Of a DNA stretch of 64,000 nt, positions 1 to 21,487 are shown in pieces. The translations under genes and the position numbers were made by a program. The notes under the pieces are model-generated. The model did not search any database, had not been told where the DNA came from, and was given only the letters and a program-made list of their open reading frames with translations. How positions within the stretch are numbered: the first letter of the stretch is position 1; each line of letters opens with the position of its first letter. The stretch is from an uncultured Alphaproteobacteria bacterium (GTDB taxonomy: Bacteria; Pseudomonadota; Alphaproteobacteria; Rhodobacterales; Rhodobacteraceae), in NCBI GenBank assembly GCA_963833235.1, contig CAWHXG010000004.1, forward strand, positions 90,230-154,229, given 5' to 3'.

Positions 1-738
1 CGGCAGGATTGCCTCGAAATATCCCGCGGCCGGGGGGATCACCCCGCCGGCGCCCTGCACCGGCTCGGCGAAGAAGCCGGCGATCGTCTCGGCGCCTTCG
101 GCGGCGATGAGGTCTTCCAACTCCTTCGCCAGGCGGGCGACGAAGGCCGGCTCGTCCTCGCCCTCGCGGTGCTCGCGCCAGTAATGCGGGCAGGTCAGGT
201 GCAGAAAGCCCGGCAACGGCAGCCCGAAAAGCGCGTTGTAGGGCTTGGCGGTCATCGAGGCGGCGAGCCCGGTGACCCCGTGATAGCCGTTGACCCGGGT
301 CAGAATCTTGCGCCGCTCCGGCTTGCCCTCGGCGATGGCGAGAAACCACAGCATCTTGACCATGGTGTCGTTCGCCTCGGAGCCCGAGTTGGTATAGAAG
401 ACCTGCCCGCCCTCGAAGGGGGCGAGCGCGGCCAGGCGCTCGCTCAGCGCGACCGTCTGGTCCGACATCCGCCCGAAAAGCGAGTGATAGCCCGGGAACC
501 GCGCGTATTGCGCCTGCGCGGCGGCGACGAGGGCTGGATGGTCGAAGCCCGCGACCATGTTCCAGAGACCGGAATTGGCGTCGAGATAGCGGGTGCCGGC
601 GGTATCGACCACATAGGGCCCCTCGCCGTGGGTCAGCACGGTGGTGCCGCGATCGGCAAGTGTCGGCAGGTCGGTGAAACCATAGAACGAGGCGCGCGCG
701 GCGCGCGCGGCCCAGCCGGTATCGGTTTCGTCGCGCAT
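1..738 (-). CDS. Class III (omega) aminotransferase, aspartate aminotransferase family; N-terminal ~246 aa only, the gene runs off the window start
   Basis: Reverse-strand translation from ATG at 736-738 gives MRDETDTGW...GLWNMVAGFDHPALVAAAQAQYARFPGYHSLF...FYTNSGSEANDTMVKM...YHGVTGLAASMT. This is typical of PLP fold-type I class III transaminases of the putrescine/taurine/beta-alanine-pyruvate type. The ORF track does not list it because no stop lies inside the window. Confidence 0.8.
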   Translation of the reverse strand, partial: MRDETDTGWAARAARASFYGFTDLPTLADRGTTVLTHGEGPYVVDTAGTRYLDANSGLWNMVAGFDHPALVAAAQAQYARFPGYHSLFGRMSDQTVALSERLAALAPFEGGQVFYTNSGSEANDTMVKMLWFLAIAEGKPERRKILTRVNGYHGVTGLAASMTAKPYNALFGLPLPGFLHLTCPHYWREHREGEDEPAFVARLAKELEDLIAAEGAETIAGFFAEPVQGAGGVIPPAAGYFEAILP

Positions 739-1094
739 GGGGTCGGCCTCGGTCAGGGAAAGGGATCGCAGCGGGGCGCAGAATGCCGGTCTCACGCAGA
801 GAGCGCAATGGCGCATGGTGGGCCGGTGTCGCGGTTGCACGTCGGCAGCCGCGGCGCGCCCGCGCCACCTGGTGGCGCGCGGACGCAAGGGGCTCGATGC
901 CCCGCGCGGCCGGGCTTTTCGCTGGCGAAAGGCAAGGGGCTGTCTGCCCCCTCTGGGCCTCGCGGCCCATTCACCCCCGAGGATATTTTCAAGGCAAAGA
1001 GGGGCGCGATTTTTCCGGCCCGCTTCGGGCGAGTGGCTGACGGCGAGGGCCACGAGGGCTATTGCCGGACTTCCTGGGCGGCGGGCGGAGCGGG

Positions 1095-1451
1095 ATGAAC
1101 GGGGCACGGGGCACGCAGGGGCGGATCACGCTTCGGAGGACCGAGGTGGTCGCGGGGGTCGCGAAGGTTCGCTCGATCCTGGCCGCAGCGCGGCGCGTGG
1201 GCTCGAGCCCCTCGGCGGTCAGCCAGCAGCTGGGCAATCTTGAAGCCGGGCCCGGCGCGGTCCGCGTCGACCGGGCGGCGCGGCCGCAGCGGCTGACGCC
1301 CAGGCGCCATACCTTCTGCCGCCGGGCATCCACCATCCTGGACGAGGCGGCGTCGGCGCGGGCGGACCCGACCCGCGGGGATCACTCCAACCTCGCGCGG
1401 CTGCGCCTGCGATCGAGGATTTCGACGTCGACGTCACCCGGCGGCTCCTGA
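1095..1451 (+). pseudogene. Remnant or truncated LysR-family HTH regulator, divergent from the aminotransferase
   Basis: ORF 1062..1451 translates to ...TLRRTEVVAGVAKVRSILAAARRVGSSPSAVSQQLGNLEA...RLTP...ILDEAASARA. This matches the LysR N-terminal HTH pattern (LRxLRYFVAVAE...VSQPALSQQIRQLE...RLT.AG) with degenerate residues. Only ~650 bp separate it from the DegT gene on the other strand, too little for a full ~300-aa LysR. Confidence 0.3.
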
Positions 1452-1746
1452 CCGAGATAGCGGCCTCGCTGCAGACTTGCGGCTTTTCGCTGAAGACGGG
1501 GCCGAGCCACCGACCCCTGCGCCAGCTCCGCGGCTGGTCGCACGACGTGAAGGACGCCGCCGATACCGGGCTGGTGGCGGTGGGCTATGCCCGATCCTGC
1601 GGGATCCCGAAGTTGCGCCGGCGGTGGCGTGCCACGACTGGCTGGCCGGTAAGTTGACGGTTCTGGCGGTGCCGGCCCGAGGGCGTGGGCCCCGGGTGGG
1701 GGGCCCGGGGGCCATGCTGGACGCGGCGGGCGAGGCCCGCCTCTAC

Positions 1747-2955
1747 TCAGGCACCGGGGTTGGCCTCGGCCGCCGCGTCCAGCAGCACCTCGGCGATGGC
1801 CTGGCATTCCGCCGCCGTGAGCCGGGAAGGCAGCCGGACGTCGCAGGCGCGCATGAGCATCGCCCGGGTCCGGGGCAGATCGGGTACGGGGCCAAGGAAG
1901 CCCCAGTTCCAGAAGGCGCGGGCATTGTCGGTGCTGAGCCCGAAGATCTGCACCGGCAGACCGCGCGCGCGGGCTGCCTCGATGAACTGCCGCGCCTGTG
2001 CGTCGCTCAGCCCGCGCAGGGTGAATTGCAGACTGTCGGGCGCGCGCGCCTCCCCCGGCAGCGCCTCGGGCACCGCGAACCGTTCCGGGCAGGCGCGCAG
2101 GCGTGCGGCCACGGCATCGTGGTTGGCGCGGCCGGCGGCGACCCGGGCGGGTAGCTCCGCCAATTGAGCCCGCACCAGAGCGGCGGAGAGGTTGCCGAGA
2201 CGCATGTTGTAGAGCGGCAGGCGGTTCTGCCATCCGGCCAGCGCCACTGAGAGCGCCGCATCGGCATCGTGCTTGGCCCAGTTATGCTCGTAGGCGCCCG
2301 ACATGACGATGGCACGGGCGGCGAGGCTCGGGTCGTCGGTGATGATCATGCCGCCCTCGCCGGCATTGAGCATCTTGTAGGACTGGAACGAGAAGCAGCC
2401 CATCGCGCCCAGCGTCCCGATGTGCCGGCCCTTCCAGAGGGTGCCGAGGGAATGGGCGGCATCCTCGATCACGGCCATGTCGTGCCGGGCGGCGAGCGCC
2501 AGGATCGCATCCATGTCGGAGGTGTGGCCGCGCATGTGGCTGACGAGGATCGCGGCGGCGCCGCCGCTCGCAAGCCGCGCTTCCAGGTCTTCCAAAACAA
2601 TCCGGAAATCATCGCCAACCTCGACGAGGACGGGCGTGCAGCCGGCATGGACGATGGCCGAGGGCACCGCGGCGAAGGTGAAGGCCGGCACCAGGACGCG
2701 CGCGCCGGGCGGCAGCTCCAGCGCCTTCAGCGCCAGGAAAAGCGCCGCGGAGCACGACGAGACGGCCAGCGCGTAGCCGGCGCCGAGGGCGGCGGCGAAT
2801 TCCCGCTCAAGCAGGGTGACGGGCGCATCCGCGGGGGCGGTGTAGCGGAAAAGGTCGCCGCTTTGCAGCAGGCGCTCGATTTCCGCGCGGGCGGCCTGCG
2901 GGATGGGTTCGGCGCAGGTTGTATCTGGCAGGGCGGGGAGGGAGGCGTCGAGCAT
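1747..2955 (-). CDS. DegT/DnrJ/EryC1/StrS-family PLP-dependent aminotransferase
   Basis: 402-aa ORF; ...VPAFTFAAVPSAIVHAGCTPVLVEVGDDFRI... and ...EDAAHSLGTLWKGRHIGTLGAMGCFSFQSYKMLNAGEGGMIITDD... are characteristic DegT-family motifs, including the catalytic Lys region. Confidence 0.8.
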   Translation of the reverse strand: MLDASLPALPDTTCAEPIPQAARAEIERLLQSGDLFRYTAPADAPVTLLEREFAAALGAGYALAVSSCSAALFLALKALELPPGARVLVPAFTFAAVPSAIVHAGCTPVLVEVGDDFRIVLEDLEARLASGGAAAILVSHMRGHTSDMDAILALAARHDMAVIEDAAHSLGTLWKGRHIGTLGAMGCFSFQSYKMLNAGEGGMIITDDPSLAARAIVMSGAYEHNWAKHDADAALSVALAGWQNRLPLYNMRLGNLSAALVRAQLAELPARVAAGRANHDAVAARLRACPERFAVPEALPGEARAPDSLQFTLRGLSDAQARQFIEAARARGLPVQIFGLSTDNARAFWNWGFLGPVPDLPRTRAMLMRACDVRLPSRLTAAECQAIAEVLLDAAAEANPGA

Positions 2956-3053
2956 GGGCTTTTCGGTGTTCCTGAACGTGTTCTACGGGAAAGCTGTAGA
3001 CGAAAGTTTGCCGCATTTCCATGACGCGCCCCGTCGCGGGCCGGCTCCGGCTT

Positions 3054-4355
3054 TCAGACGCCTAGTCGGTCGCGCAAGGCGTACCAGCTCATCGCGGCCA
3101 TCAGGATGGGGCTGCGCAGCGCGGCGCCGCCGGGGAAGGGCGGCACGGGCAGGCGGGCCATCAGCTCGAACCGCTCCGACGGGCCGCGCACCGCTTCGGC
3201 CAGAAGCGCGCCCGCGAGGGTGGCCAGCGCCACCCCGTGGCCGGAATATCCCGAGGCGGTCAGCAGGCCGGGGCCGGGGCGGCCGAACCATGGCAGGCGC
3301 GATCGGGTGATGGCCAGCGTGCCGCCCCAGGCATGGGTGACGGGGTGGGTGGCCAATTGCGGGTAGAGGCCGCGCATGCGGGCGGCCACGAGGCCGGCGA
3401 TGTCCCGCGGGAAGGTGTAGCCGTAGCTTTCGCCGCCGCCGAAGATCATCCGGTTGTCGTGGCTGCGGCGCCAGTAGTTGACGACGAAGCGGTCGTCGGC
3501 CACGGCCACGTCGGTGGGCAGGATCTCGGGGAATGCGTCGAGCGGCTCGGTGGCGACGACGAAGTTGTTGATCGGCATGACGCGCGCCGCCGTCGGCAGG
3601 TTCAGCGCGCCCAGATAGCCGTTGCAGGCGAGGATGCCGTGGGGGGCGGTGACCGTGCCGCTTGCGGTGCTGGCCCGGACGGGCGTTCCGGGCGCGACGG
3701 CTGTGACCTCGGCGCCCTCGTGCAGGATCGCGCCGGCGGCCTGGGCGGCCCGCGCGAGGCCGAGGACGAAGCGCAGCGGGTGCAGGTGCCCCGCGCCGGT
3801 ATCGAGGACGCCACCGGCGAAGGCGGTCGAGCCGGTGGTTTCGGCCATGGCGGGCGCGTCGAGGACCTGCAGTTTCGCGTAGGCGTAGTCGTGCGTCAGC
3901 TTGTCCGCCAGACGGCGGGCATGGTCGAAGCCCGCGGCGGTGCGCACCGCCTCGACGATGCCGCTGCGCCAGTGGCAGTCGATGGCGTGGCGCGCGATGA
4001 GGTGGCGGACCAGTGCCTTGGCGTCCTCGCCGACCTGCCAGAGGGCCTGCGCATCCGCCTGCGGCACCAACTTTTCCAGCGCGTCCTGCGTGACCCTTTG
4101 GCCGGAGCCCACCTGCCCGCCGTTGCGCCCCGAGGCGCCGAAGCCGATGCGCTGTGCTTCCAGCACCCTCACGCTCAGCCCCGCCTCGGCCAGATGCAGG
4201 GCGGCGGAAAGGCCGGTGTAGCCGGCGCCGACGATGCAGACGTCGGCGGCCACGTCGCCCTCCAGCGGCGGGCAGGGCGGCAACGGATCGGCGGTGGCGG
4301 CGTACCAGCTGGCCGGATAGGCGCCCGGGCTGTCGTTGCGGTGCAGCAGGCTCAT
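3054..4355 (-). CDS. FAD-dependent oxidoreductase, DAO family; gamma-glutamylputrescine oxidase PuuB/PauB/OrdL-like
   Basis: Starts MSLLHRNDSPGAYPASWYAA...DVCIVGAGYTGLSAALHLAEAG (Rossmann GxGxxG). The ATG overlaps the stop of the upstream GS-like gene by 4 nt (ATGA). The longer 860-aa track ORF is an out-of-frame upstream extension. Confidence 0.8.
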   Translation of the reverse strand: MSLLHRNDSPGAYPASWYAATADPLPPCPPLEGDVAADVCIVGAGYTGLSAALHLAEAGLSVRVLEAQRIGFGASGRNGGQVGSGQRVTQDALEKLVPQADAQALWQVGEDAKALVRHLIARHAIDCHWRSGIVEAVRTAAGFDHARRLADKLTHDYAYAKLQVLDAPAMAETTGSTAFAGGVLDTGAGHLHPLRFVLGLARAAQAAGAILHEGAEVTAVAPGTPVRASTASGTVTAPHGILACNGYLGALNLPTAARVMPINNFVVATEPLDAFPEILPTDVAVADDRFVVNYWRRSHDNRMIFGGGESYGYTFPRDIAGLVAARMRGLYPQLATHPVTHAWGGTLAITRSRLPWFGRPGPGLLTASGYSGHGVALATLAGALLAEAVRGPSERFELMARLPVPPFPGGAALRSPILMAAMSWYALRDRLGV

Positions 4356-5710
4356 ACGGCCATCAGCAGGTGCTTGCGCTCCCAGGGGCTGATCTCCTGC
4401 AGGAACTCCTCGTATTCGGTCTCCTTTACGACCTCGTAGGTGCGGCTGAACTCCTCGCCCAGCACGGCGCGCAGGTCGGCGTCGCGGGCGAAAAGCTCCA
4501 GCGCCGCGAAGATGCCGCGCGGCACCTCTTCCTTGCCGTTGTAGGCATCGCCCACATAGAGCGCACGCGGCGCGATCTTGCGCTCGATGCCGATGAGGCC
4601 GCAGGCCAGCGAGGCGGCGATGCCGAGATAGGGGTTGCAGTCCATCCCCGCGACCCGGTTCTCGATCCGGCGGCTCTCTGGCGGCGAGATGGGCACCCGG
4701 ATGCCGGTGGTGCGGTTGTCGCGGCCCCATTCGAGGTTGATCGGCGCGGCATGGTCCTTGACGTAGCGGCGGTAGCTGTTGACGTAGGGCGCCAGGATCG
4801 CGACGGCGGCCGGCAGGTGGGTCTGCATGCCGCCGATGAAGTGGTGGAAGATCTCCGACTCCCCGCCCTCGCCATCGCTGAAGATATTGGCGCCGGTGGC
4901 CTTCTCGAGCACGGAATGGTGGATGTGCATGGCGCTTCCCGGCTCGCCCTCGATGGGCTTGGCCATGAAGGTGGCGAAGCAGTCGTGTCGCAGCGCCGCC
5001 TCCCGGATCAGCCGCTTGAAGAAGAACACCTCGTCGGCCAGCTTCACCGGATCGCCGTGGCGCAGGTTGATCTCGACCTGCCCCGCGCCGCCCTCCTGGG
5101 TGATGCCGTCGATCTCGAAGCCCTGGGCCTCGGCGAAGTCGTAGATGTCGTCGATCACGGGCCCGTATTCGTCGACCGCCGACATGGAATAGGCTTGGCG
5201 CGCGGCGGCGGGGCGGCCCGAGCGGCCCATCATCGGCTGGATCGACTGGCCGGGGTCGATGTTGCGGGCGACCAGGTAGAACTCCATCTCGGGCGCCACC
5301 ACGGGGCTTAGCCCCAGCTCGGCATAGGCCGCGACGACCCGCTTCAGCACGTTGCGCGGCGCCATGGACACCGGGCGGCCCTGACGGTCCGAGACGTCGT
5401 GGATGATCTGCAGGGTGCAGTCGGCGGTCCACGGCGCGGCGGTGGCGGTGGAGAAATCGGGCGTCAGGATCATGTCGGGCTCGGTGAAGCTTTGCCCGTC
5501 GGGCAGTTCGGCCCAGCCGCCCGCGATGGTCTGGTAGAAGATGCTGTCGGGCAGGTAGAAGGCCGATTGCCGCGCGAACTTGCTGGCGGGCATCGCCTTT
5601 CCGCGGGCGATGCCGGGCAGGTCGCTGACGATGCATTCGACCTCGTCGAGCCGTCGGCCCTCGAGATAGGCGCGGGCGGCGCCCGGGATCTTGGCGAGCC
5701 AGTCAGCCAT
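4352..5710 (-). CDS. Glutamine synthetase family protein (gamma-glutamylpolyamine/amine synthetase, PuuA/PauA-like)
   Basis: GS catalytic-domain motifs (..MAKPIEGEPGSAMHIHHSV.., ..NRVAGMDCNPYLGIAASL..). Start taken at MADWLAKIPGAARAYL (ATG at 5708-5710); the 5' end overlaps the GATase gene by 8 nt. Confidence 0.85.
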   Translation of the reverse strand: MADWLAKIPGAARAYLEGRRLDEVECIVSDLPGIARGKAMPASKFARQSAFYLPDSIFYQTIAGGWAELPDGQSFTEPDMILTPDFSTATAAPWTADCTLQIIHDVSDRQGRPVSMAPRNVLKRVVAAYAELGLSPVVAPEMEFYLVARNIDPGQSIQPMMGRSGRPAAARQAYSMSAVDEYGPVIDDIYDFAEAQGFEIDGITQEGGAGQVEINLRHGDPVKLADEVFFFKRLIREAALRHDCFATFMAKPIEGEPGSAMHIHHSVLEKATGANIFSDGEGGESEIFHHFIGGMQTHLPAAVAILAPYVNSYRRYVKDHAAPINLEWGRDNRTTGIRVPISPPESRRIENRVAGMDCNPYLGIAASLACGLIGIERKIAPRALYVGDAYNGKEEVPRGIFAALELFARDADLRAVLGEEFSRTYEVVKETEYEEFLQEISPWERKHLLMAV

Positions 5711-6422
5711 GGGCGGCCTCCCGGCCGTCGTGCGCCCGACCATGGGCATGGGTGAGAAAATCCGCGAACCAGTCTGCCACGCGCGGCCCGTCGAGCGGCT
5801 GGCCGGCGCGGGCGGCGGCGGCATCGATCATGCCGGGCGGATATTCCGGATCGTGACGGCGGTTGTGGAAGTAGTCGGCCGAGACGGCGGCATCGAATTC
5901 CGGGTGCGGCTGGATCGTGAGGATCGTCTCGCCGTAGGCGAGCGCGGCATTGGCGCAGAAATCCGAGGCGCCGAGGTTGCGCGCGCCGGGCGGCAGGGCC
6001 GTGACCTGATCCTGGTGCCAGGCGGTGAGGGCGACGGTGCCAAGCCCGTCGATGGCATAGTCGGTGCGGCCGATGGCCCAGCCTTCGGGGTATTTCACCA
6101 CCGTGCCGCCGAGCGCCTGGGCGACGATCTGGTGGCCGAAGCAGATGCCGAGGATCGGCGCCTCGGCGGCGGCGGCCTTACGGATGAAGGCCTCGAGCGG
6201 TGCGATGAAGGGCAGCGGCTCGTAGGCGCCGTGCCGCGAGCCGGTGATGAGCCATGCATCGGCCTCATGGGGGCCTTCGGGAAACTCCATGTCGACGACG
6301 TTCCAGGTGGTGAAGCGCCAGCCGCGCCCTGCGAGCAGGCGCCGGAACATCGCGTCGTAATCGCCGTGGGCGGTGACGATATCGGGCTTGGCGTGGCCGC
6401 ATTGGAGGATGCCGATATGCAT
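5703..6422 (-). CDS. Class I glutamine amidotransferase-like protein (gamma-glutamyl-GABA hydrolase PuuD/PauD-like)
   Basis: MHIGILQCGH...ILGICFGHQIVAQALGG...IQPHPEF: a GATase1 Cys-His-containing fold, and operonic with the two GS-like genes. Confidence 0.75.
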   Translation of the reverse strand: MHIGILQCGHAKPDIVTAHGDYDAMFRRLLAGRGWRFTTWNVVDMEFPEGPHEADAWLITGSRHGAYEPLPFIAPLEAFIRKAAAAEAPILGICFGHQIVAQALGGTVVKYPEGWAIGRTDYAIDGLGTVALTAWHQDQVTALPPGARNLGASDFCANAALAYGETILTIQPHPEFDAAVSADYFHNRRHDPEYPPGMIDAAAARAGQPLDGPRVADWFADFLTHAHGRAHDGREAAHG

Positions 6423-6587
6423 GATGGCCCTTTCGTCTGGCTCTGCGCCTGGGTTCGGGCCGGACGCCCGCAAGGTTGCCCGAAGGCGCCGCCCTGGCGC
6501 TGCACCCCTGGCACCGAAGCGCCCCCGGTGATGTGCGCCGGACCCTAGACGCGGCCCCCGGACCGGGCAAGCCGTGCCGTTGCCCGC

Positions 6588-7901
6588 TCACACCAGCTCG
6601 AACGTCTCCATCCCCAGGACCTCAGCGCGCATCGCGTCGGACTTGCGCAGCTCCTGCCGCTTGGTGCGCACCAGGTTGTCGACCAGCAGGCGCGGGAAGA
6701 TCCGCGCCATCTTCGGCGAGCCGTCGAACCGGTCGATGGCCTCCTGCCAGTCGGTCGGGATCTGCAGAAGGCGCTGGCCGTAGGCGTTGCCGATCACCGG
6801 CACGGGCGGGTCGAGCGCATCCTCGATGCCCATCAGCATGGCGCCGAGGATCGCGGCGAGGACAAGGTAGGGATTGGTGTCGCCGCCCGGCGCGCGATGT
6901 TCCAGCCGCCGGGCGCGGGGTTCGCCGCCGGGGATGCGGATGGCTGTGGTGCGGTTCTCGTAGCCCCAGGAAGCGCCGGTGGGCGCATGGCTGCCGGGGG
7001 CGAACCTGTCGTAGCTGTTTGCGTGGGGCGCGAAGATCAGCGTGGCGCCGGGCATGCCGGCCACGGCCCCGGCGATGGCTTGGCGGAGGAGCGCGGAGCC
7101 GGTCATCAGGCCGTTGTCGAAGACGTTGCGGCCGCGCTCGTCGAGCACCGAGACGTGGAAATGCAGGCCGTTGCCGGCATCGCCCTCGAACGGCTTGGCC
7201 ATGAAGGTGGCGGCCAGCGCATGCGCCCGGGCGGTGCCGCGCACGAGCGTCTTGAAGAGCGCCGTGTCGTCGGCGACCCGCATCGCGGGGCCGTGCATCA
7301 GGTTGACCTCGAACTGCGCGCGGCCGCTTTCCGAGATCGCGGTCTGCGCGTCGATGCCCATCGCTTCGGCGCCGGCATAGAGGGCATCGAAGAAGGCGGC
7401 GAAGCGATCAAGGCCCATCACGTCGTTTATGCGGCCGGCGGTGATCGGGCGCCCGGTGACGGGGTCGCGGGCAGGGGCGAGGGCCGTGCCGGCATCGTCC
7501 ACAAGGGTGAATTCCAGCTCTGAGGCCGCGACGACCTTCCAGCCGCGCTTGGCGAAGCGGGCCAGCACCCGGGCCAGGGCGTGCCGCGCGTCGCCGTCGA
7601 AGGGCCGCCCCTCGTCGGTATACATCCACATCGGAACGAGGGTCGCGGGGGAGCCGAGCCAGGGCATGGGCACGGGTCCGCGGTCGGTCACGCGCAGCTG
7701 CCCGTCGGCGTCGCCGGTGGCGAAGACCAGCGGGCTGTCGTCGATGTCGGTGCCCCACAGATCGAGGTTGAGCGCCGAGAGCGGCATCCGGTGCCCCTCG
7801 AATTCCAGCTTGGCGCCATGCGCCGCCGGCATCCGCTTGCCGCGCCAGACGCCGTTCAGATCGGCGCAGGCGGTGCGCAGGCTGGCGGTTGGAAGGTCCA
7901 T
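6588..7901 (-). CDS. Second glutamine synthetase family protein (PuuA/PauA-like paralogue)
   Basis: 437 aa; ..ATFMAKPFEGDAGNGLHFHVSVLD.., ..NRTTAIRIPGGEPRARRLEHRAPGGDTNPYLVLAAILGAM..; a GS catalytic domain lacking the canonical GlnA N-terminal region. Confidence 0.8.
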   Translation of the reverse strand: MDLPTASLRTACADLNGVWRGKRMPAAHGAKLEFEGHRMPLSALNLDLWGTDIDDSPLVFATGDADGQLRVTDRGPVPMPWLGSPATLVPMWMYTDEGRPFDGDARHALARVLARFAKRGWKVVAASELEFTLVDDAGTALAPARDPVTGRPITAGRINDVMGLDRFAAFFDALYAGAEAMGIDAQTAISESGRAQFEVNLMHGPAMRVADDTALFKTLVRGTARAHALAATFMAKPFEGDAGNGLHFHVSVLDERGRNVFDNGLMTGSALLRQAIAGAVAGMPGATLIFAPHANSYDRFAPGSHAPTGASWGYENRTTAIRIPGGEPRARRLEHRAPGGDTNPYLVLAAILGAMLMGIEDALDPPVPVIGNAYGQRLLQIPTDWQEAIDRFDGSPKMARIFPRLLVDNLVRTKRQELRKSDAMRAEVLGMETFELV

Positions 7902-7907
7902 CTTTTC

Positions 7908-8747
7908 CTAGCGGACGAGCTGCATGCGCGGGCGCAGTCGGATGCGGGCGGCCTGCGGCAGGTGGCGGTTCAGGCGCTTGTTGACCGCGCCGAAGAGGGT
8001 GATGACACACAACGTCAGCAGGATGAAGTAGCCCGCGACGATGGGGTAGGGGATGAAGGGGTTGAACGTCTTGTCAGCGAAGTAGCTGGCGTAGTAGAGC
8101 GCGTCGCCGCGCTGCTGCCAGGCCGGGAAGCCCGAGAAGAAGACGAGCGTCGTGGCGTGGAAGAGAAAGATCGCCTCGTTGGTATAGGCCGGCCAGGCGA
8201 GCCTCAGCATGGTGGGCCATGTCACGCGGCGGAACTTGACCCAGCCGGACATGCCGTAGGCCTCCGCCGCCTCCAGATCGCCCTTCGGGACGGAGCGGAG
8301 CGCGCCGTAGAAGATCTCGCCGGTATAGGCGGCGGTGTTGAGGAAGAGCACGATCAGCGCGCCGCCCCAGGCCCGGGTGAGCCAGCCCGTGTCGGCGTCA
8401 AAGGCCACGCCGAGGACGCTGAACTCGATGCCGCCGCGGGGCAACAGCACGAACGCCTCGTAGGCCAGGAAGAACTGGATGAAGAGCGGCGAGCCGCGGA
8501 AGACGAAGACGAACCATTCCGCGGGAAGCCGCGCCCAACGCGACGGCGCGGCCTTGCCGAGCGCCACCAGCGTGGCGAGGAAGAATCCGAGGGCCAGTGC
8601 GACGAGTCCGAAGTAGACGTTCCAGATCAGGCCGGAGCCGATCAGCACGAATTGCTCGCAGAGGGTGAAGTCGGACCGGGGCAGCAGCCGCTCGCCGATC
8701 CCGACGCTGCGCAGGGCATAGTCCTGGAATGTCTGGGCGCAGCTCAT
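7908..8747 (-). CDS. ABC transporter permease, polar amino acid/opine family (HisM/OccM-like)
   Basis: 279 aa, multi-TM, with an EAA-like loop ..EAAEAYGMSGWVKFRRVTWP.. Confidence 0.85.
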   Translation of the reverse strand: MSCAQTFQDYALRSVGIGERLLPRSDFTLCEQFVLIGSGLIWNVYFGLVALALGFFLATLVALGKAAPSRWARLPAEWFVFVFRGSPLFIQFFLAYEAFVLLPRGGIEFSVLGVAFDADTGWLTRAWGGALIVLFLNTAAYTGEIFYGALRSVPKGDLEAAEAYGMSGWVKFRRVTWPTMLRLAWPAYTNEAIFLFHATTLVFFSGFPAWQQRGDALYYASYFADKTFNPFIPYPIVAGYFILLTLCVITLFGAVNKRLNRHLPQAARIRLRPRMQLVR

Positions 8748-8844
8748 GCGGGCACCTTGGCTTGCACTGGTTCATGGCCGTGACGCGGTGCGACCGACGG
8801 GCGACCGCAGGCGCAGTCTGCGAGCGGGGTGATCCGGGCGCCGC

Positions 8845-9729
8845 TCATGCCGGCACCGCGCGGCGCTGCGCCTCGCCGGCCATGGTCGCCTGCCCGTGGC
8901 TCATGGCGACCTGCAGGCGGCGGAAGACCCGCTCGGAGAAGGCCGTGAGCGTCAGGTAGAAGACCAGCAGGCCGAGGAAGTACCAGAGCCGCCAGTCTGG
9001 ATGAGGATAGTCGAACATCGAGGTCTTTGCGCCGCCGAGCTCGCGCGCCCAGTAGACGATATCCTCGATGCCGAGCAGGAAAAGCAGCGGGGTCGCCTTG
9101 ACGAGGATCTGCCAGAGGTTCGAAAGGCCGGGCAGCGCGAAGACCCACATCTGCGGCACCAGCACCCGCCAGAAGCTCTGGCGCGGGGTCATGCCGTAGG
9201 CCTCGGCCGTCTCGATCTGGGCGCGGGGCACGGCGGCCATGGCACCGCTGAGGACGTTCGCGGCGAAGGCCCCGAAGACGATCGAGAAGGCGACGACGGC
9301 AAGCGCGAAGCCGTAGGCATCGTGGGTGAAGGCGCTGGCGTTGGAGACGGGCAACTTCGCCGCGGGGCAGACGACGAAGTCGTTGCCCTGCCGGATCGCG
9401 CCCTCCCAATCGGGGCACTTGGCCTGGTGGCGCAGCCATTCGAGGCCCTGGTCGAGCGCGATGGGCACGAAGAGGAAGAACGCGACGTCGGGGATGCCGC
9501 GCACCATCGAGGTGTAGACCCGGCCGAAGAGGCGGAGTGCGAAGAAGGGCGAGCGCGCGGCCACGGCGCCGCCGAACCCGAAGGCCAGCGCGATGGGGGC
9601 GGTGATCGCCAGCAGCAGCAGGACGGTGCCGAAGCTGGCATAGAACGCCATGTGCTTGCCGGTAGTGAGGTAGCAGGCGAGCCAGGTCAGCCCCTCGATG
9701 GCGTCGGGATCGGTGCAGATGGCGAACAT
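8845..9729 (-). CDS. ABC transporter permease, polar amino acid/opine family (HisQ/OccQ-like)
   Basis: 294 aa; ..ETAEAYGMTPRQSFWRVLVPQM.. (EAA motif). An alternative start at M27 (~9651) would give 268 aa. Confidence 0.8.
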   Translation of the reverse strand: MFAICTDPDAIEGLTWLACYLTTGKHMAFYASFGTVLLLLAITAPIALAFGFGGAVAARSPFFALRLFGRVYTSMVRGIPDVAFFLFVPIALDQGLEWLRHQAKCPDWEGAIRQGNDFVVCPAAKLPVSNASAFTHDAYGFALAVVAFSIVFGAFAANVLSGAMAAVPRAQIETAEAYGMTPRQSFWRVLVPQMWVFALPGLSNLWQILVKATPLLFLLGIEDIVYWARELGGAKTSMFDYPHPDWRLWYFLGLLVFYLTLTAFSERVFRRLQVAMSHGQATMAGEAQRRAVPA

Positions 9730-9851
9730 GGCTCAGGCCGCTCCGATTTCTGGAGCGGGGCAGGGGGCATGACGCCGCGGTTGGAGAGCCGTTAGACCCA
9801 TCTGGATGTGGCCGGCGCGGGGTGCCGGGGGCGTCCCGCGCCAATCCTGGC

Positions 9852-10574
9852 TCAGTTGAAGGTGGGCGAATCTTCGCCGAACCATTTGGTGATCAGCCCG
9901 TCGATCGTGCCGTCGGCCTTCAGGTCGGTAATGACCGCGTCGAACGTTTCCTTCAGCTCCGTGTCGCTTTCGCGCAGGCCCATGCCGATACCGCCGCCCA
10001 GCTGTACGTCCTCGCCGACGAAGGTCATGTCGGAATCTTCCGCAACGATGTCGCTGAGAAAGTCCTTGTCGGCGAAGACCGCGTCGGCCTCGCCGTTTCG
10101 GACGGCGGCGATGGTCTCGTCGGGGGTGGCGAATTCGACGAGGGTGGCCCCGCTCTCGGCGATGAAGCCGGCCTGGATCGTGGAGGTCTGGGCCGCGATC
10201 ACGCCGCCTTCGAGGTCGACATCGTCAGACATCGCGGCATAGGCGGAGGATGCGGGCGGCATGTAGTTCTGGGTAAAGTCGATGACCTCGTCACGCTCGG
10301 GCGTGATGCTCATGCCGGCCATGATCGTGTCGTAGTTGCCGGATGTGAGGTTGGGGATGATGCTGTCCCATTCGTTTGTGACCCATTCACAGGTCAGCCC
10401 GGCTTTCTCGCAGATGAGATTGCCGAGCTCGATCTCGTAGCCGTCGACCGTGCCGCTGTCGTTGATGAAGTTGTAGGGGGGGTAGGCGCCTTCTGTGCCC
10501 ATGCGGATGGTGTCCTGGGCTGTGGCGATACCGGCGCCGAGGGCGAAGGCGGCGGCGAGTGCGAGGGTCTTCAT
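9852..10574 (-). CDS. Periplasmic substrate-binding protein of a polar amino acid/opine ABC transporter (family 3 SBP)
   Basis: MKTLALAAAFALGAGIATAQ signal peptide, then ..IRMGTEGAYPPYNF...GYEIELGNLICEKAGL.. typical of HisJ/ArgT/OccT-type SBPs. Start ATG at 10572-10574, preceded by GGAGAT. Confidence 0.85.
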   Translation of the reverse strand: MKTLALAAAFALGAGIATAQDTIRMGTEGAYPPYNFINDSGTVDGYEIELGNLICEKAGLTCEWVTNEWDSIIPNLTSGNYDTIMAGMSITPERDEVIDFTQNYMPPASSAYAAMSDDVDLEGGVIAAQTSTIQAGFIAESGATLVEFATPDETIAAVRNGEADAVFADKDFLSDIVAEDSDMTFVGEDVQLGGGIGMGLRESDTELKETFDAVITDLKADGTIDGLITKWFGEDSPTFN

Positions 10575-10615
10575 TGGGGATCTCCGATGTTGGGACAGGT
10601 TTTTATGATTGCCGG

Positions 10616-11428
10616 TCAGGCCGGAAGCCGGGCCGGTTCGGGGGCCTGCGCCTCTGCCGGCATGGTGGCCGAGAGGAACTGACGCAGGCGAGTGGATTTC
10701 GGGGCGCCGAAGAGCGTGGCCGGCGGCCCTTCCTCCTCCACGCGGCCCTGATGCAGGAACACGACGTGATCCGAGACGTCGGCGGCCAGGCGCATGTCGT
10801 GGGTGACGATGAGCATCGTGCGCCCCTCGGCGGCCAGGTCGCGGATGACGCGCACGACCTCCTGCTCCAGCTCGGGGTCGAGGGCTGAGGTTGGCTCGTC
10901 GAAAAGAAGCGCCTTGGGTTCCATGCAGAGCGCGCGGGCGATGGCGGCGCGCTGCTGCTGGCCGCCCGAAAGCTGCGCGGGGTAGACGTCGCATTTTTCG
11001 CCGATGCCGACCTTGGCCAAGAGCGCGCGGGCGCGGGCCTCGACCGTGGCACGGTCCTGGCGAAGGACCGTCACGGGGGCCTCCATGACGTTCTGCAGGA
11101 TGGTCATGTGGGCCCAGAGGTTGAACTGCTGGAAGACCATGCTGAGATTGGTGCGCACCCGAAGCACCTGCGCGCGGTTTGCCGGGCGGCGGCTATGGGC
11201 GGCGCCCTTCCAGGCGATGGGCTCGCCCTCGAAAAGGATCTCGCCCTGCTGGCTGTCTTCCAGCAGGTTGGCGCAGCGCAGCAGCGTGGACTTGCCGGAC
11301 CCCGAGGAGCCGATGAGCGAGACGACATCGCCGCGGGCGGCGCGGAGTGAGACGCCCTTGAGCACCTCCAGTGCGCCATAGGCCTTGTGCAGGTCCCTGA
11401 TCTCGATGACGGGGGGGAGTCGGGTCAA
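10616..11428 (-). CDS. ABC transporter ATP-binding protein (HisP/OccP-like)
   Basis: Walker A GSSGSGKST, signature LSGGQQQRAAIARAL, Walker B LLFDEPTSALD, H-loop. Confidence 0.9.
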   Translation of the reverse strand: MTRLPPVIEIRDLHKAYGALEVLKGVSLRAARGDVVSLIGSSGSGKSTLLRCANLLEDSQQGEILFEGEPIAWKGAAHSRRPANRAQVLRVRTNLSMVFQQFNLWAHMTILQNVMEAPVTVLRQDRATVEARARALLAKVGIGEKCDVYPAQLSGGQQQRAAIARALCMEPKALLFDEPTSALDPELEQEVVRVIRDLAAEGRTMLIVTHDMRLAADVSDHVVFLHQGRVEEEGPPATLFGAPKSTRLRQFLSATMPAEAQAPEPARLPA

Positions 11429-11619
11429 TCCATGCTCGCTTCAGCCATTTTCGGCCACCGTCGCGTGCGGCCAGCCGCGATTACGGAGTACTGCGCCGGG
11501 TATTGCAAGCGTCGGGTCTGGGCCAAGCCTGCGAAAATCTGCCGAACCGCCTATTTAACAGGCGTTGGACCGATCTACCGTTGGGGAAGCTTGGAGGGAT
11601 GCAGCGCGAATCTGCGGCG

Positions 11620-12069
11620 TCAGGCCAACCCCGAAGCCTTCTGTACGCGGCGGCGAGCCATGTTGCTGTCGCGGTCGTTGATGCCCAGGAGCGGCGCGAT
11701 CTGGCGGAGCAGTGCGTCTTCCTCGGCCTCCCGCTCGCCATCGGCCAGCACCACCTGCCACATGGCCTCGATCACCGCGATCCGATCTTCAAGCGGAACG
11801 GCGCCCTTGATGGCCCGGGTGAAGCGCACCGTGTCGGGGGCCTCCGCCTCCAGACGCTCCGCTTGACCACGCAGCGCGGCGGCCTCGAAGGGACCGAGGC
11901 CGTAGCGCGCAGCCAGCACGCGATCGATCCGGGCCACCTCGGTCTTGGAATAGACCTCGTCGGCCCGGGCGATGCGCACCAGGATCGCCGCGAGCGCCAC
12001 GCGGGCGTCGGGCTCCGTCAGAGGCTCGGAATCATTGGCGGTGAGGCGGCGAAGCAGGTTTTCGAACAT
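11620..12069 (-). CDS. TerB-family (tellurite-resistance TerB-like) protein
   Basis: 149 aa; ..LAAILVRIARADEVYSKTEVARIDRVLAARYGL...IEAMWQVVLADGEREAEEDALLRQIAPLLGI.. matches the TerB-like two-repeat helical fold. Confidence 0.65.
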   Translation of the reverse strand: MFENLLRRLTANDSEPLTEPDARVALAAILVRIARADEVYSKTEVARIDRVLAARYGLGPFEAAALRGQAERLEAEAPDTVRFTRAIKGAVPLEDRIAVIEAMWQVVLADGEREAEEDALLRQIAPLLGINDRDSNMARRRVQKASGLA

Positions 12070-12114
12070 GGCGCCAATCTAGGGCGCTCTGCGGCAGGCA
12101 CAAGCCACGCCGCC

Positions 12115-12972
12115 TCAGCGGGCCGCGGCCTTGAGACGCCGGGCGAGCGTGGTGGTGTCGTCGCCCGCGGCGCGCGGCACGATCCGGTAGCCGGCATTCA
12201 CGTAGCAGAAGAAGGCAAAGGCCAGCAGACCGGCGCAAAGCACGCCCACCAGAACCCGACCGTAGGCCTGCTGAGAGAGCCACTGGAAGGTCTTCCCAAG
12301 GCCGCCCGCCTGGCTGGGGTCGGTCGTCATCGCGGCATAGACGAGAAAGCCGCCGACGATGGTGACGGTGACCCCCTGGGCGGCGACGCCCATCATCAGC
12401 GCCGGGTTCCAGTTGAGGGTGAACTGGCTGGCTTGCAGGTTCTCGCGGTAATCCTGCGCGACAGCCTTCTTGATGTAGTAGAGGCCGGCGCCAACGGTAA
12501 GCAGGCCGGCCGCGCCGACGAGCCAGACGCCATAGGGTTGCGACATGATCCAGGAGACCGCCTCTGCGATCTTCGATCCTTCGCCGCCACTGCCGCCGCC
12601 CGAGGCCGCAGTGCCCCCGCCGCTCCCACTTCCGCCGCCAGAGCTTCCGCCCGTCCAGATCAGCGCCGCCGCCGCGCCGGCGAGGGCCAGGTGGATCGCG
12701 CCGGTGACGATCATGCCGCTCCGTGCGATCCAGGCCTTAGCGTCGCTCCCGTATGCTTCCAGATCCCAGAACGCATCGACGGCGCGCCAGATGGCGTAGG
12801 CAGCGAGGCCGAGAGCGATGCCGACCAGAACCGTGACCCCCCACCAGGTGGTCTCCAGTTGCTTGAAGGCCTGCGAGGTGCCCTGTGCCTGCCCGCCGCG
12901 GGAGATCGCATAAAGCGAAAAGCCCCCGATGACGGTGTAGACGAGCCCGCGGCCGAAATAGCCGGCCCGCAT
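12115..12972 (-). CDS. DUF1206-like multi-pass membrane protein with internal Gly/Ser-rich linker
   Basis: Start placed at MRAGYFGRG (ATG 12970-12972) because the divergent DUF3140 gene begins at 13154. Repeated TM segments with conserved W/Y, and a low-complexity GGSSGGGSGSGGGTAASGGGSGGEGS stretch (~12590-12670). Confidence 0.55.
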   Translation of the reverse strand: MRAGYFGRGLVYTVIGGFSLYAISRGGQAQGTSQAFKQLETTWWGVTVLVGIALGLAAYAIWRAVDAFWDLEAYGSDAKAWIARSGMIVTGAIHLALAGAAAALIWTGGSSGGGSGSGGGTAASGGGSGGEGSKIAEAVSWIMSQPYGVWLVGAAGLLTVGAGLYYIKKAVAQDYRENLQASQFTLNWNPALMMGVAAQGVTVTIVGGFLVYAAMTTDPSQAGGLGKTFQWLSQQAYGRVLVGVLCAGLLAFAFFCYVNAGYRIVPRAAGDDTTTLARRLKAAAR

Positions 12973-13153
12973 GAAGGGAATTGCCCAGGCGAAATCGTCG
13001 GGGTCGGTGTCAAGCTGGCGCAAGGCGGCGGTCCTTTCGTGACTCTCCTTCCCAATGCATGAGCCATGCCCGGCGTTCCCCCCAACCTTCGGGAAACCGG
13101 CCAGCACGGCGGCGCGTTGCGCCCCGGACCGCACCGTAGACAGGAGACCGACG

Positions 13154-13486
13154 ATGGCGAAATCCCACGACGAGATCTGGGAAGAATGGGGCAAGTTGGT
13201 GAACATGGCGCCCAAGGAGCTGGAGGATTGGCTGGAGACCGAGGAAAGTCGCGAGGTGGGCGATACCGGCGGAGAGGGCGAAAGCACCGGCCACAAGTCG
13301 GGCCGCCGGATCGTGGAGATCAGGCGGACCAACAAGGGCGATCTGAGCGACGACCAGTGGGACTGGATGGGCAAGACCGTGGGCTACGTCAACCGTCATC
13401 TGGCCCAAGGCGGCCCGGATGAGGACATGGAACACAGCAAATGGCGGTATTCCCTGATGAACTGGGGGCATGACCCGGCGAAGTGA
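13154..13486 (+). CDS. DUF3140 family protein
   Basis: MAKSHDEIWEEWGKLVNMAPKELEDWLETEESREVG...IVEIRRTNKGDLSDDQWDWMGKTVGYVNRHLAQ; AGGAGA RBS 6-11 nt upstream of the ATG. Confidence 0.7.
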   Translation: MAKSHDEIWEEWGKLVNMAPKELEDWLETEESREVGDTGGEGESTGHKSGRRIVEIRRTNKGDLSDDQWDWMGKTVGYVNRHLAQGGPDEDMEHSKWRYSLMNWGHDPAK

Positions 13487-13573
13487 TGGCCGGCCCTCCC
13501 GCCCGGGGGAGTGGGCCGGCAGGGTCTTCAGTGCCCAGCGTCGGGTACCCGGTAAACTTGGACGCGCGCCGCG

Positions 13574-13744
13574 TTATCCCGGCTGCGTCCATATCAGCCA
13601 AAGCGGGCTGTTTGGCGCGGTGGGAAGAATGTCGTGTATCCTCTTCTCCGGACGGACCATGTCTTCGCTGCGCATCAGGGCCACGACGCGGGCGTCATGG
13701 ATCAGCGTGCCGTCGGGCGCTCTTTCGATAACCGGGGCGATCAT
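13574..13744 (-). CDS. Small hypothetical ORF (56 aa) in an otherwise gene-free ~780 bp stretch
   Basis: MIAPVIERAPDGTLIHDARVVALMRSEDMVRPEKRIHDILPTAPNSPLWLIWTQPG; GC3 ~77%. Shorter than the ORF-track cutoff and with no homology I can recognise. Confidence 0.2.
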   Translation of the reverse strand: MIAPVIERAPDGTLIHDARVVALMRSEDMVRPEKRIHDILPTAPNSPLWLIWTQPG

Positions 13745-14261
13745 GCAGGCGGGGTCAGCCTCGGTCCGGCCGCAGGGATTGCAAAGGCTGGGAACGTTCA
13801 GGTGCGCCGTGCGACCTGAATTTCAAACGTGCGCCCTGCAGCTAGGTCAGGAGTACGAGGCCACGCCTGTTCACGTTCCTGCTGAGGGCGCCCGTTCTGG
13901 TTTCGAAGTGCCGCGCATGCAGATCCTTGAAGACCTCGAGGCCGATAAGGTCGACATGCCGCAGGTAGCTTAGGAAGGGTCCACTGCAGCCTGCGCGCGA
14001 TGCTGCACTGCCTCACCAAAAGGTATCATCAAACACCCGCGCTTCCGCCCGAACCACTATTTCGGCACAGCCCGCTCAATCGGGGTCATCCGCACCATGC
14101 GGCGGCGATCACCTCCGGCGCGGTCCGGCTGCTCGATGGCACGACGCGCCGCCGATGGCAAATCTGAGACCGGACCCGAGGCTATCCATCATTGTGACTG
14201 CCCACTTGCGAAAAGGGCCGGCACAAGGCCGACCCCAAAACTCACTACCTGATGAAAGCGC

Positions 14262-14438
14262 TCAGCTGTCGCCGCGCAGCTTGTCCTTCGCCTCGCCAAC
14301 ACCCTTCTGGATGCTGCCTTCGGCTTGGTCCGCATTGCCTTCGGCTTCCATGTCGTGGTTGCCGGTGGCCTTGCCGAACTCTTCCTTGGCCTTGCCGCCG
14401 GTCTTCTTCATCGAGCCTTTGATCTTGTCGTCGTCCAT
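14262..14438 (-). CDS. csbD: CsbD-family general stress protein
   Basis: MDDDKIKGSMKKTGGKAKEEFGKATGNHDMEAEGNADQAEGSIQKGVGEAKDKLRGDS; AGGAGG RBS 7 nt upstream of the ATG. Confidence 0.8.
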   Translation of the reverse strand: MDDDKIKGSMKKTGGKAKEEFGKATGNHDMEAEGNADQAEGSIQKGVGEAKDKLRGDS

Positions 14439-14462
14439 CTGTATGCCCTCCTGAGCTGGGTA

Positions 14463-14490
14463 GTAAACTTGCCGCCCGCTGACTTGTTCC
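14463..14490 (-). promoter_or_regulatory. Putative EcfG/SigT-type (alphaproteobacterial general stress sigma factor) promoter for csbD
   Basis: Reading in the csbD direction: GGAACA-AGTCAGCGGGCGGCAA-GTTTAC, which fits GGAAC-N17-GTT and ends ~25 nt upstream of the csbD ATG. Confidence 0.4.
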
Positions 14491-14753
14491 CTCATAAGTG
14501 GCGATCGCGCGGACGATTGCAGCAGATCCCGGCGCCGTCCCCCCGAATGCCCCGCGCAGGCAGCTTCTGCAGCCGGCCCGCACCAAAGCTCATACAGCCG
14601 AATGAGGGGGAGCCGGGGCTCGGTGACCGATCCGACCCGGAAGGGTGGATTTCTCTGCACCGATCCGCGACGGACCGCAACTTTCCGTTAACCATGACGT
14701 ACCTTGAGGTAGCGGTCGAATTACGCCCGCTTTCAATGAATGAGGGAGTGACG

Positions 14754-15584: not shown

Positions 15585-15674
15585 CGGCCTTGAAGCTGGC
15601 CGGCTGGTTCCTGGCACGGCCGGCCCACTGCAGAGGATCCGGGCGGGGGGCATCAGAGCCGCCCCGCCCGGATC

Positions 15675-20400: not shown

Positions 20401-20538
20401 GCGGGCCTCGGGCAACGCTCTAAACGCTTCGGAGCCAAGGGGGCAAGGCGTTCGGCCGGTTGGGCGACCGGCCCGTGTCCCTCGCCATCCGCCGCGGAAT
20501 GTGCAGGATGGCACAAAACCGCAAGGAGAACGGACCGG

Positions 20539-21444: not shown

Positions 21445-21487
21445 TGCGGGGCCGGCTGAAGCGGGGCGCCGCGGGGCGGGGCGGCTG

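Follow-up and report, generated by a model that had tools for sequence, protein, structure and literature searches.

Gamma-glutamylation of amines is known from the Puu system of Escherichia coli and from Pseudomonas aeruginosa, which has seven pauA genes (PMC9397018, PMC10606097) and uses the modification in its cadaverine step (PMC9397018). Here we describe a gene cluster of this already known Puu/Pau type in a 64,000-nucleotide stretch of DNA, referred to as the window, from an uncultured bacterium of the Rhodobacteraceae (contig CAWHXG010000004.1 of assembly GCA_963833235.1, positions 90,230 to 154,229; coordinates below count from the first nucleotide of the window). Its nine minus-strand genes encode a four-component ATP-binding cassette (ABC) importer, two ligases of the glutamine synthetase (GS) family, termed GS1 and GS2, a hydrolase of the class-I glutamine amidotransferase (GATase) fold, an oxidase dependent on flavin adenine dinucleotide (FAD) and a pyridoxal 5′-phosphate (PLP) enzyme of the DegT family. 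The operon is genuine and is shared by hundreds of marine Rhodobacterales. We read it, giving the reading about an even chance, as a Puu/Pau-type gamma-glutamylation operon for amines that enter the cell as basic amino acids, wired to an importer of the lysine/arginine/ornithine (LAO) type. Our analysis supports the original prediction for this DNA in that plain imported putrescine is an improbable substrate.

GS1 (6588-7901) and GS2 (4352-5710), both recognised by Pfam Gln-synt_C, are predicted gamma-glutamyl-amine synthetases. We compared them with PuuA, GlnA and the Protein Data Bank (PDB) entries for GmaS, NpaA1 and PA5508. The two ligases share 34% identity with each other, and each is 35–36% identical to E. 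coli PuuA over its full length; PuuA (~240 bits) is a much closer relative than true GS, GmaS, NpaA1 or PA5508 in the PDB. Both fall short of the PuuA equivalog NF045547 (cut-off 650 bits), which GS1 matches at 146 bits and GS2 at 196 bits. When aligned with E. coli GlnA and PuuA, residues E129, E131, E212, E220, H269, H271, R321, R339, R344, E357 and R359 are invariant in GS1 and GS2, while D50 and S53 of the ammonium site and the E327 flap are replaced in both, as in PuuA. The retention of the catalytic ligands together with the loss of the ammonium site thus argues for competent glutamate ligases that use a non-ammonia acceptor, and on sequence grounds both are catalytically complete, ATP-dependent enzymes lacking an ammonium site. 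Most likely, the pair would provide two acceptor specificities, like PauA1 and PauA2 of Pseudomonas.

The FAD-dependent oxidase (3054-4355; Pfam DAO) shares 40% identity with E. coli PuuB across 427 of its 433 aligned positions (BLAST, E = 4e-104). It is PuuB-like and predicted to act on a gamma-glutamylated amine, and this match, together with the PuuA identity of both ligases, bears out the Puu/Pau-like enzyme set proposed earlier for the locus. The hydrolase appears to depart from that set. The GATase-fold protein (GAT; 5703-6422) is a predicted gamma-glutamyl-amide hydrolase in which the triad is present as Cys94 (GICFGHQ) and the His-Pro-Glu of positions 173-175, and among solved structures plant gamma-glutamyl peptidase 1 is its best match (E = 6e-16). 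GAT scores 48.6 bits against Pfam GATase versus 27 bits against Peptidase_C26, reaches 138 bits with NCBIfam PRK05665, below the cut-off, and gives no BLAST match to PuuD at 1e-3. GAT thus appears not to be of the PuuD/peptidase-C26 type; PuuR and PuuP lack a counterpart in the locus.

The importer subunits make up a four-component system of the polar amino acid transport (PAAT) family, with an SBP_bac_3 substrate-binding protein (SBP), HisQ- and HisM-like permeases and a HisP-like ATPase. The ATP-binding subunit (10616-11428; TTG start; Pfam ABC_tran; best NCBIfam match HisP, 327 bits against a cut-off of 466) is 76% identical to the ATPase of the SPO1304-1307 transporter of Ruegeria pomeroyi. 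It is followed by the LAO/HisJ-like SBP, which has a signal peptide (9852-10574; Pfam SBP_bac_3), by the HisQ/ArtQ-like permease 1 (8845-9729; Pfam BPD_transp_1; NCBIfam ArtQ/HisQ below cut-off) and by the HisM-like permease 2 (7908-8747; Pfam BPD_transp_1; NCBIfam HisM, 135 bits). The best fold and sequence matches of the SBP are 3I6V, LAO and NocT. PDB entry 3I6V is matched at E = 1.8e-106 with 73% identity by BLASTP; a sequence-cluster look-up equates it with R. pomeroyi DSS-3 protein Q5LTV6/AAV94595, its title in the Foldseek entry names a protein 'from Silicibacter pomeroyi', in complex, and SBPs 85–90% identical to it sit inside the cluster in four relatives (L023, L029, L039 and L053 in our numbering of loci). 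The ligand in 3I6V is presumably lysine.

Alignment with E. coli ArgT and HisJ (28–31% identity) shows that the SBP keeps S72, R77, Q122 and D161, with which LAO holds the alpha-carboxylate and alpha-ammonium groups, and the stacking Y14, with Trp in place of F52 and Glu in place of D11, which contacts the cationic side chain. Because the LAO residues are retained, the ligand is expected to be an alpha-amino acid with a cationic side chain, thus not a free polyamine, a sulfonate or a sugar, and by size and similarity a NocT-type opine is not expected either. The proposal that the locus has a His/opine-family ABC importer instead of PuuP or PotFGHI holds in the form of an LAO/His (PAAT) system: the SBP belongs to the LAO/HisJ family of SBP_bac_3 proteins, not to PuuP or a PotF/PotD-family ABC system for polyamine-type uptake. 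The amino-sugar, aminocyclitol and opine substrates suggested alongside it find no support in an SBP that keeps the residues binding an alpha-amino acid and a cation and is orthologous to 3I6V. An opine catabolic locus was likewise rejected; NocT and OccJ match mainly the N-terminal lobe at ~30% identity, the SBP (240 aa) groups with LAO-type binders, and Pfam and NCBIfam searches found no two-subunit opine oxidase (OoxAB/NoxAB) in the locus. A 2021 review assigns 3I6V to Anabaena variabilis (PMC8786288), but its true source, according to both PDB title and sequence cluster, is Silicibacter (Ruegeria) pomeroyi DSS-3.

The genes are packed unevenly. G+C in the region is ~70%, and the program-made list of open reading frames is rich in long spurious frames, among them an 860-aa frame (3054-5636) that we rejected as a high-GC artefact. 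Gene starts were placed from conserved N-termini and ribosome-binding sites, and all gene assignments are upheld by Pfam and NCBIfam. The eight minus-strand genes from the ATPase to the oxidase stand in the order originally claimed, with corrected coordinates. GS2 and the oxidase share an ATGA overlap (4352-4355), GAT and GS2 overlap by 8 nt (5703-5710), and 6 nt separate the stop of permease 2 from the start codon of GS1. The 'tiny gaps or overlaps' of the earlier description are real at these three junctions but not at the others, with gaps of 41 nt (ATPase/SBP), 122 nt (SBP/permease 1), 97 nt (permease 1/permease 2) and 165 nt (GS1/GAT); a further 98 nt lie between the oxidase and DegT. A scan of the minus (coding) strand found no terminator-like hairpin in any intergenic gap of the cluster, and an Rfam scan of window positions 1-16000 (E ≤ 1) returned zero matches and thus no riboswitch or other RNA in the gaps. 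The look of a single operon is accordingly supported by the lack of predicted terminators in the gaps, by conserved overlaps and by a gene order that recurs in relatives. Two stretches are longer in the window than elsewhere: permease 1 and permease 2 are 97 nt apart (8748-8844) versus a 4-nt overlap in 45 of 48 relatives, and the 165-nt GS1-GAT gap compares with a median of 60 nt. The Rfam and terminator scans of both extra stretches were negative.

Relatives were sampled with a GS1 profile, which found GS1 relatives in at least 580 species-level genomes, and the best 80 loci were mapped with nine window proteins. All 80 are labelled Rhodobacterales or Rhodobacteraceae except L031 (Nocardioides), L051 (Alphaproteobacteria) and L059 (Granulosicoccus). 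The full order ATPase-SBP-permease-permease-GS1-GAT-GS2-FAD-DegT is present in 33 of them, and nearly all the others have GS1-GAT-GS2-FAD, whether or not DegT follows; a core order recurring this widely is far beyond chance. The GAT/GS2 overlap is kept in 63 of 75 loci, GS2 and the oxidase lie within 10 nt of each other in 36 of 65, and GS2 is the best-conserved enzyme of the cluster (68–78% identity across loci). DegT lies 3′ of the oxidase in most loci, occurs in three without a PuuB-like gene, and is missing from a dozen that have one. It is a conserved ninth member of the cluster, so that the original prediction was right that a DegT gene and a class-III transaminase are present but wrong to treat DegT as a mere flank. 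In relatives, the flanks are secG, pyrG and TerB genes upstream and phaR, phasin, phaC and phaZ genes downstream, and from these housekeeping neighbours we conclude that the cluster belongs to the core chromosome. The window has a TerB-domain protein (11620-12069, minus strand) just upstream of the operon, within the synteny conserved in relatives, and a DUF1206 membrane protein at 12115-13374 (minus strand), also upstream.

Cluster variants in other genomes show which parts can be exchanged. In R. pomeroyi, the order runs from pyrG through TerB-TerB-PhnD-like-ATPase-SBP-permease-permease-DAO-GS1-GAT-GS2, and this cluster (SPO1300-1307) contains neither a PuuB-like nor a DegT gene; its DAO protein SPO1303 (L089, 12601-13659) is a small ThiO-like enzyme of 352 aa. 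A second ThiO-like DAO lies between SBP and permease 1 in L045 (7088-8194), the ThiO-like proteins spanning 352-368 aa, and in Tropicibacter (L023, 8376-9602) a Tat-signal flavin amine oxidase (PF01593) sits between permease 2 and GS1, with the PuuB-like gene missing. Taken together, the variants define an invariant core of importer, ligases and hydrolase, with an amine-to-carbonyl slot filled by interchangeable enzymes, in most loci the PuuB-like DAO. Other inserts in some relatives (a MerR/MerT pair, alpha/beta hydrolases, FGE-sulfatase-like genes and pgk/fba/PPIase blocks) were set aside as idiosyncratic and uninformative on function.

The smallest version occurs in Paracoccus species, where the four transporter genes are followed 4 nt on by a single GS1-like ligase, and GAT, GS2, the oxidase and DegT are absent. 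Window GS1 is 55% identical to this single GS gene behind the same ABC transporter, with an SBP identity to Paracoccus of only 52%. In the Paracoccus ferrooxidans example (L091, 5651-10299), miaB follows the GS1-like gene. A Pseudosulfitobacter plasmid carries a differently arranged cluster with GntR, a GS1-like ligase, a PuuB-like oxidase, an LAO-type SBP, two permeases, a further GntR and a gamma-glutamyltransferase, and the GS1-like ligase of S. meliloti belongs to a GS-oxidase-aldehyde dehydrogenase (ALDH) cluster adjoining agmatinase.

The Paracoccus version, with transporter and GS1 only, speaks for a non-catabolic role, with the ligases making gamma-glutamyl conjugates that detoxify or store toxic basic amino-acid analogues or polyamines, or with GAT and GS2 acting as a glutamine-dependent amidoligase. 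In Streptomyces and Pseudomonas, gamma-glutamylation does shield the cell from toxic polyamines (PMC8998196, PMC9397018), and the translational coupling of GAT and GS2 in 63 of 75 loci also speaks for this reading. We nevertheless hold this to be very improbable: the PuuB-like oxidase and the hydrolase in the operon point to onward degradation, GS2 lacks the ammonium-site residues, and a GATase that supplied ammonia to a GS-like enzyme would run a futile cycle.

The Paracoccus module and the plasmid cluster also bear on whether transporter and enzymes belong together at all. GS1, GAT, GS2 and the oxidase could form an ordinary Pau module that degrades putrescine, cadaverine or spermidine made internally or brought in by PotFGHI-type import, the amino-acid ABC transporter being a mere syntenic neighbour in a core block (pyrG-secG-TerB ... 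phaR-phaC). Such a module would have the layout of spuI/spuA/spuB/spuC in P. aeruginosa (PMC9397018, PMC10606097), and it would fit the housekeeping nature of the flanks, the ~12 loci with no transporter nearby, the several others with unrelated genes between permease 2 and GS1, and the SpuC-like class-III aminotransferase behind the cluster in five loci and in the window. It fits poorly with an ABC-GS1 adjacency that persists from Paracoccus to roseobacters across so low an SBP identity, with the return of LAO-type SBP and permeases beside a GS1-like ligase and a PuuB-like oxidase in the differently organised plasmid cluster, and with the lack of a terminator between transporter and enzymes in the window. 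We regard it as an improbable explanation, though one to be reckoned with.

The DegT/DnrJ/EryC1-family protein (1747-2955; Pfam PF01041) has its PLP lysine, Lys194, in the motif SFQSYK and stands far from every sugar aminotransferase in the PDB. Outside its orthologous group, the closest proteins are the DegT members of alphaproteobacterial cuyA-cuyC-cuyB-hpsN clusters, at 37–41% identity, which places it in a CuyC-like clade. In such clusters the DegT member, CuyC, works as a cysteinolate racemase that depends on PLP, and the threshold for its orthologues is ~45% identity (PMC12814064, December 2025). The window protein falls outside the CuyC orthologue group, and hpsN, cuyA and cuyB stand next to DegT in 0 of 80 loci. 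Since the nearest characterised relative is a racemase (PMC12814064), DegT may turn out to have no aminotransferase activity, and a glutamine-dependent sugar aminotransferase is even less to be assumed; the earlier description of this protein as an often glutamine-dependent aminotransferase loses its footing. DegT is taken to be a paralogue with some small amine as its predicted substrate. The R. pomeroyi 'CuyC' (Q5LPQ3) was considered as the DegT of the cluster and rejected, as SPO1300-1307 has no DegT gene. Clusters with DegT paralogues on plasmids (L083-L087) contain a CuyA-like 'D-cysteine desulfhydrase', DegT, an amino-acid racemase, a tauABC or TRAP transporter, a HisD-like dehydrogenase and a sulfite/sulfate exporter, and match the recently described D-cysteinolate pathway (PMC12814064).

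This kinship raises the alternative of amino-sulfonate or amino-alcohol catabolism, in which a cysteinolate- or taurine-like substrate would be processed with DegT as a CuyC-type racemase (PMC12814064). Roseobacters are major sulfonate consumers, and sulfonated amino acids are within the range of PAAT-family ABC systems, as cuyTUVW (SPO3040-3043) shows by transporting cysteate (PMC10130141). The identity to CuyC-context proteins is, however, under the ~45% orthologue level (PMC12814064), the cluster has no hpsN, cuyA, cuyB, sulfite exporter or sulfite dehydrogenase, and the Glu of the SBP at LAO position 11 suits a cation rather than a sulfonate. We give this alternative very little credence.

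In the preferred reading, a basic amino acid, lysine first and probably also ornithine or arginine, would be imported, and GS1 and/or GS2 would gamma-glutamylate its distal amino group, the acceptor being the amino acid itself or cadaverine or putrescine derived from it through an unlinked decarboxylase. The PuuB-like oxidase would then convert the remaining free amino group to a carbonyl, with the DegT PLP enzyme acting in parallel or preparing the substrate. An unlinked aldehyde dehydrogenase would oxidise the product, and finally the GATase-fold hydrolase, translationally coupled to GS2, would remove the glutamate. Each acceptor has something in its favour. A diamine, formed by an unlinked decarboxylase, fits precedent. 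Phaeobacter inhibens degrades lysine by parallel routes, one through cadaverine, 5-aminopentanoate and glutarate and the other through pipecolate (PMC5653290). A side-chain amine as acceptor fits the tight ABC-GS1 module, the lack of a linked decarboxylase and partners of the alpha-carbon type, namely DegT and the ThiO-like DAO.

The second acceptor can be developed into a scheme of its own, in which imported lysine (or ornithine) is gamma-glutamylated directly on its side-chain amine, the epsilon-amino group of lysine, as a protecting group. C-alpha would next be deaminated or epimerised by the CuyC-like DegT or a DAO-family oxidase and the non-PuuD GATase would deprotect; for lysine, the 2-oxo acid would be decarboxylated or oxidised and the GATase would free 5-aminovalerate and glutamate. 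With gamma-glutamyl as the protecting group, the scheme would mirror the fungal N6-acetyl-lysine pathway, where protection blocks cyclisation to piperideine carboxylate. ABC plus GS1 is the minimal module in Paracoccus, with 4 nt between them there and 6 nt in the window, the SBP pocket suits an alpha-amino acid whose side chain is cationic, and a linked decarboxylase is missing from all 80 loci. The variable partners also belong to enzyme types that work on secondary-carbon amines or alpha-amino acids: a C2 amine is the target in the DegT/CuyC clade (PMC12814064), and the ThiO-like DAO of R. pomeroyi is a member of the glycine-oxidase family. Against such protection, the oxidase most resembles PuuB, whose target is a terminal CH2-NH2, the cluster has no 2-oxo-acid decarboxylase or dehydrogenase, and the second ligase is left without explanation. 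As far as we are aware, the action of a GS-family ligase on an amino acid side chain has no precedent either, and we consider the scheme unlikely.

The preferred reading, of basic amino acids feeding a gamma-glutamylation operon, draws on the PuuA and PuuB homology, the ligase residues, the GAT triad, the LAO pocket of the SBP and the conserved overlaps. It draws equally on the Paracoccus ABC-GS1 module, the Pseudosulfitobacter plasmid cluster, the context of the S. meliloti GS1-like ligase and the variable amine-to-carbonyl slot, and on the lysine-cadaverine route of P. inhibens (PMC5653290) taken together with gamma-glutamylation in P. aeruginosa (PMC9397018). A number of points weigh against it. 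The spacing between permease 2 and GS1 varies among relatives, with a median of 157 nt, the transporter is missing from the 10 kb upstream in ~12 Ruegeria-type loci, and no protein of the cluster, its enzymes included, attains an NCBIfam equivalog cut-off. We know of no GS-family ligase that accepts lysine or ornithine itself. Neither a PuuC/PauC aldehyde dehydrogenase nor a decarboxylase is present in the operon, the 64-kb window or the conserved flanks; pauC is unlinked in P. aeruginosa too (PMC9397018, PMC10606097), so the missing linked ALDH does not exclude a gamma-glutamylation mechanism. In R. pomeroyi, the SPO1304-1307 mutant has no assigned substrate from a screen of 156 transporter mutants on compounds that included lysine, arginine, citrulline, polyamines and tyramine, and cadaverine, putrescine and spermidine are imported through PotFGHI (PMC10130141). 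SPO1300-1307 are not among the genes induced by nitrogen limitation in that species (PMC3390766). Our literature search gave no experiment tying any orthologue to a substrate, no mention of SPO1300-1306 and no link of gamma-glutamylation to roseobacters.

Downstream of DegT, the window edge cuts a class-III (omega-) aminotransferase (1-738, minus strand; N-terminal 246 residues; NCBIfam PRK06105, 275 bits for the fragment), an optional tenth gene. In 5 of the 80 loci (L046, L051, L055, L075 and L079) this gene lies 3′ of the cluster in the same orientation; in L075 it comes right behind the oxidase, and in L051 right behind DegT. Between DegT and the window aminotransferase is a LysR remnant (1107-1510, plus strand), which would be divergent from the latter; it covers residues 2-137 of a full-length homologue (L055, 15901-16920) and has a frameshift near 1410. 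The remnant was rejected as regulator of the cluster, being truncated and frameshifted and pairing with the class-III aminotransferase, as was the LysR beside the R. pomeroyi cluster, which pairs with an aldo-keto reductase. No dedicated regulator is conserved with the cluster among the loci compared. Control by sigma-54 and NtrC was also discarded: no TGGC-N8-TGC lies upstream of the ATPase gene, and the nearest GG...GC pair is spaced 18 nt, not 12. Further along, the window carries a RimK-like ATP-grasp ligase paired with an AstE/AspA-family (succinylglutamate desuccinylase-like) protein (20389-22567, plus strand), and an M42 peptidase at 23515-24210.

Roseobacters are major consumers of phytoplankton-derived nitrogen compounds, and many of their transporters lack assigned substrates. 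For this core-genome operon of hundreds of species, an SBP structure and an arrayed R. pomeroyi transporter mutant make annotation tractable. Once the amine is named, this very common marine cluster could be annotated, and the specificity of two orphan clades of GS-like ligases and of an apparently non-PuuD gamma-glutamyl hydrolase could be pinned down; it would also be a test for further small-molecule functions in the newly recognised CuyC-like DegT branch. If the amino acid itself proved to be the acceptor, the operon would represent a new lysine/ornithine pathway, widespread in marine Rhodobacterales, and GS-like ligases would gain a new class of acceptor.

Among described systems, the spu genes of P. 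aeruginosa with the wider Pau network come closest, spuA encoding the GATase and spuB a GS-like ligase. There, spuI/spuABCDEFGH likewise combine a GS-like gene, a GATase-fold hydrolase and a second GS-like gene adjoining a class-III aminotransferase and an ABC importer (PMC9397018, PMC10606097). The two non-identical ligases, put forward originally as a distinguishing trait, are therefore no novelty here, since two ligases around a GATase are also the spu arrangement (PMC9397018, PMC10606097), and the class-III aminotransferase behind the window cluster resembles spuC. Unusual instead are the importer, being of amino-acid type, and the CuyC-like enzyme. The P. aeruginosa system differs in its PotF/PotD-type importer SpuDEFGH, where ours is an LAO/HisJ-type amino-acid system, in its divergent spuI, where all our genes are co-directional, and in having no PuuB-like oxidase or DegT/CuyC-like PLP enzyme within the operon. 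The wider Pau system (PauA1-7, PauB1-4, PauC and PauD1-2) also has several ligases with different amine specificities and an unlinked ALDH. E. coli Puu shares with the cluster the PuuA-like ligase type that lacks the ammonium-site residues and the PuuB-like oxidase, but has one ligase, a PuuD/C26 hydrolase, PuuC, PuuR and PuuP in place of two ligases, an apparently non-PuuD hydrolase and an amino-acid ABC importer. That importer follows the same four-component PAAT plan as LAO/HisJ-HisQMP, with longer permeases (279-294 aa) and linkage to gamma-glutamylation enzymes. DegT shares its Pfam family and PLP lysine with CuyC, but lies below ~45% identity and is beside hpsN, cuyA and cuyB in 0 of 80 loci. 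What sets the operon apart is its LAO-type importer, its apparently non-PuuD hydrolase, its in-operon PuuB-like oxidase and its CuyC-like PLP enzyme.

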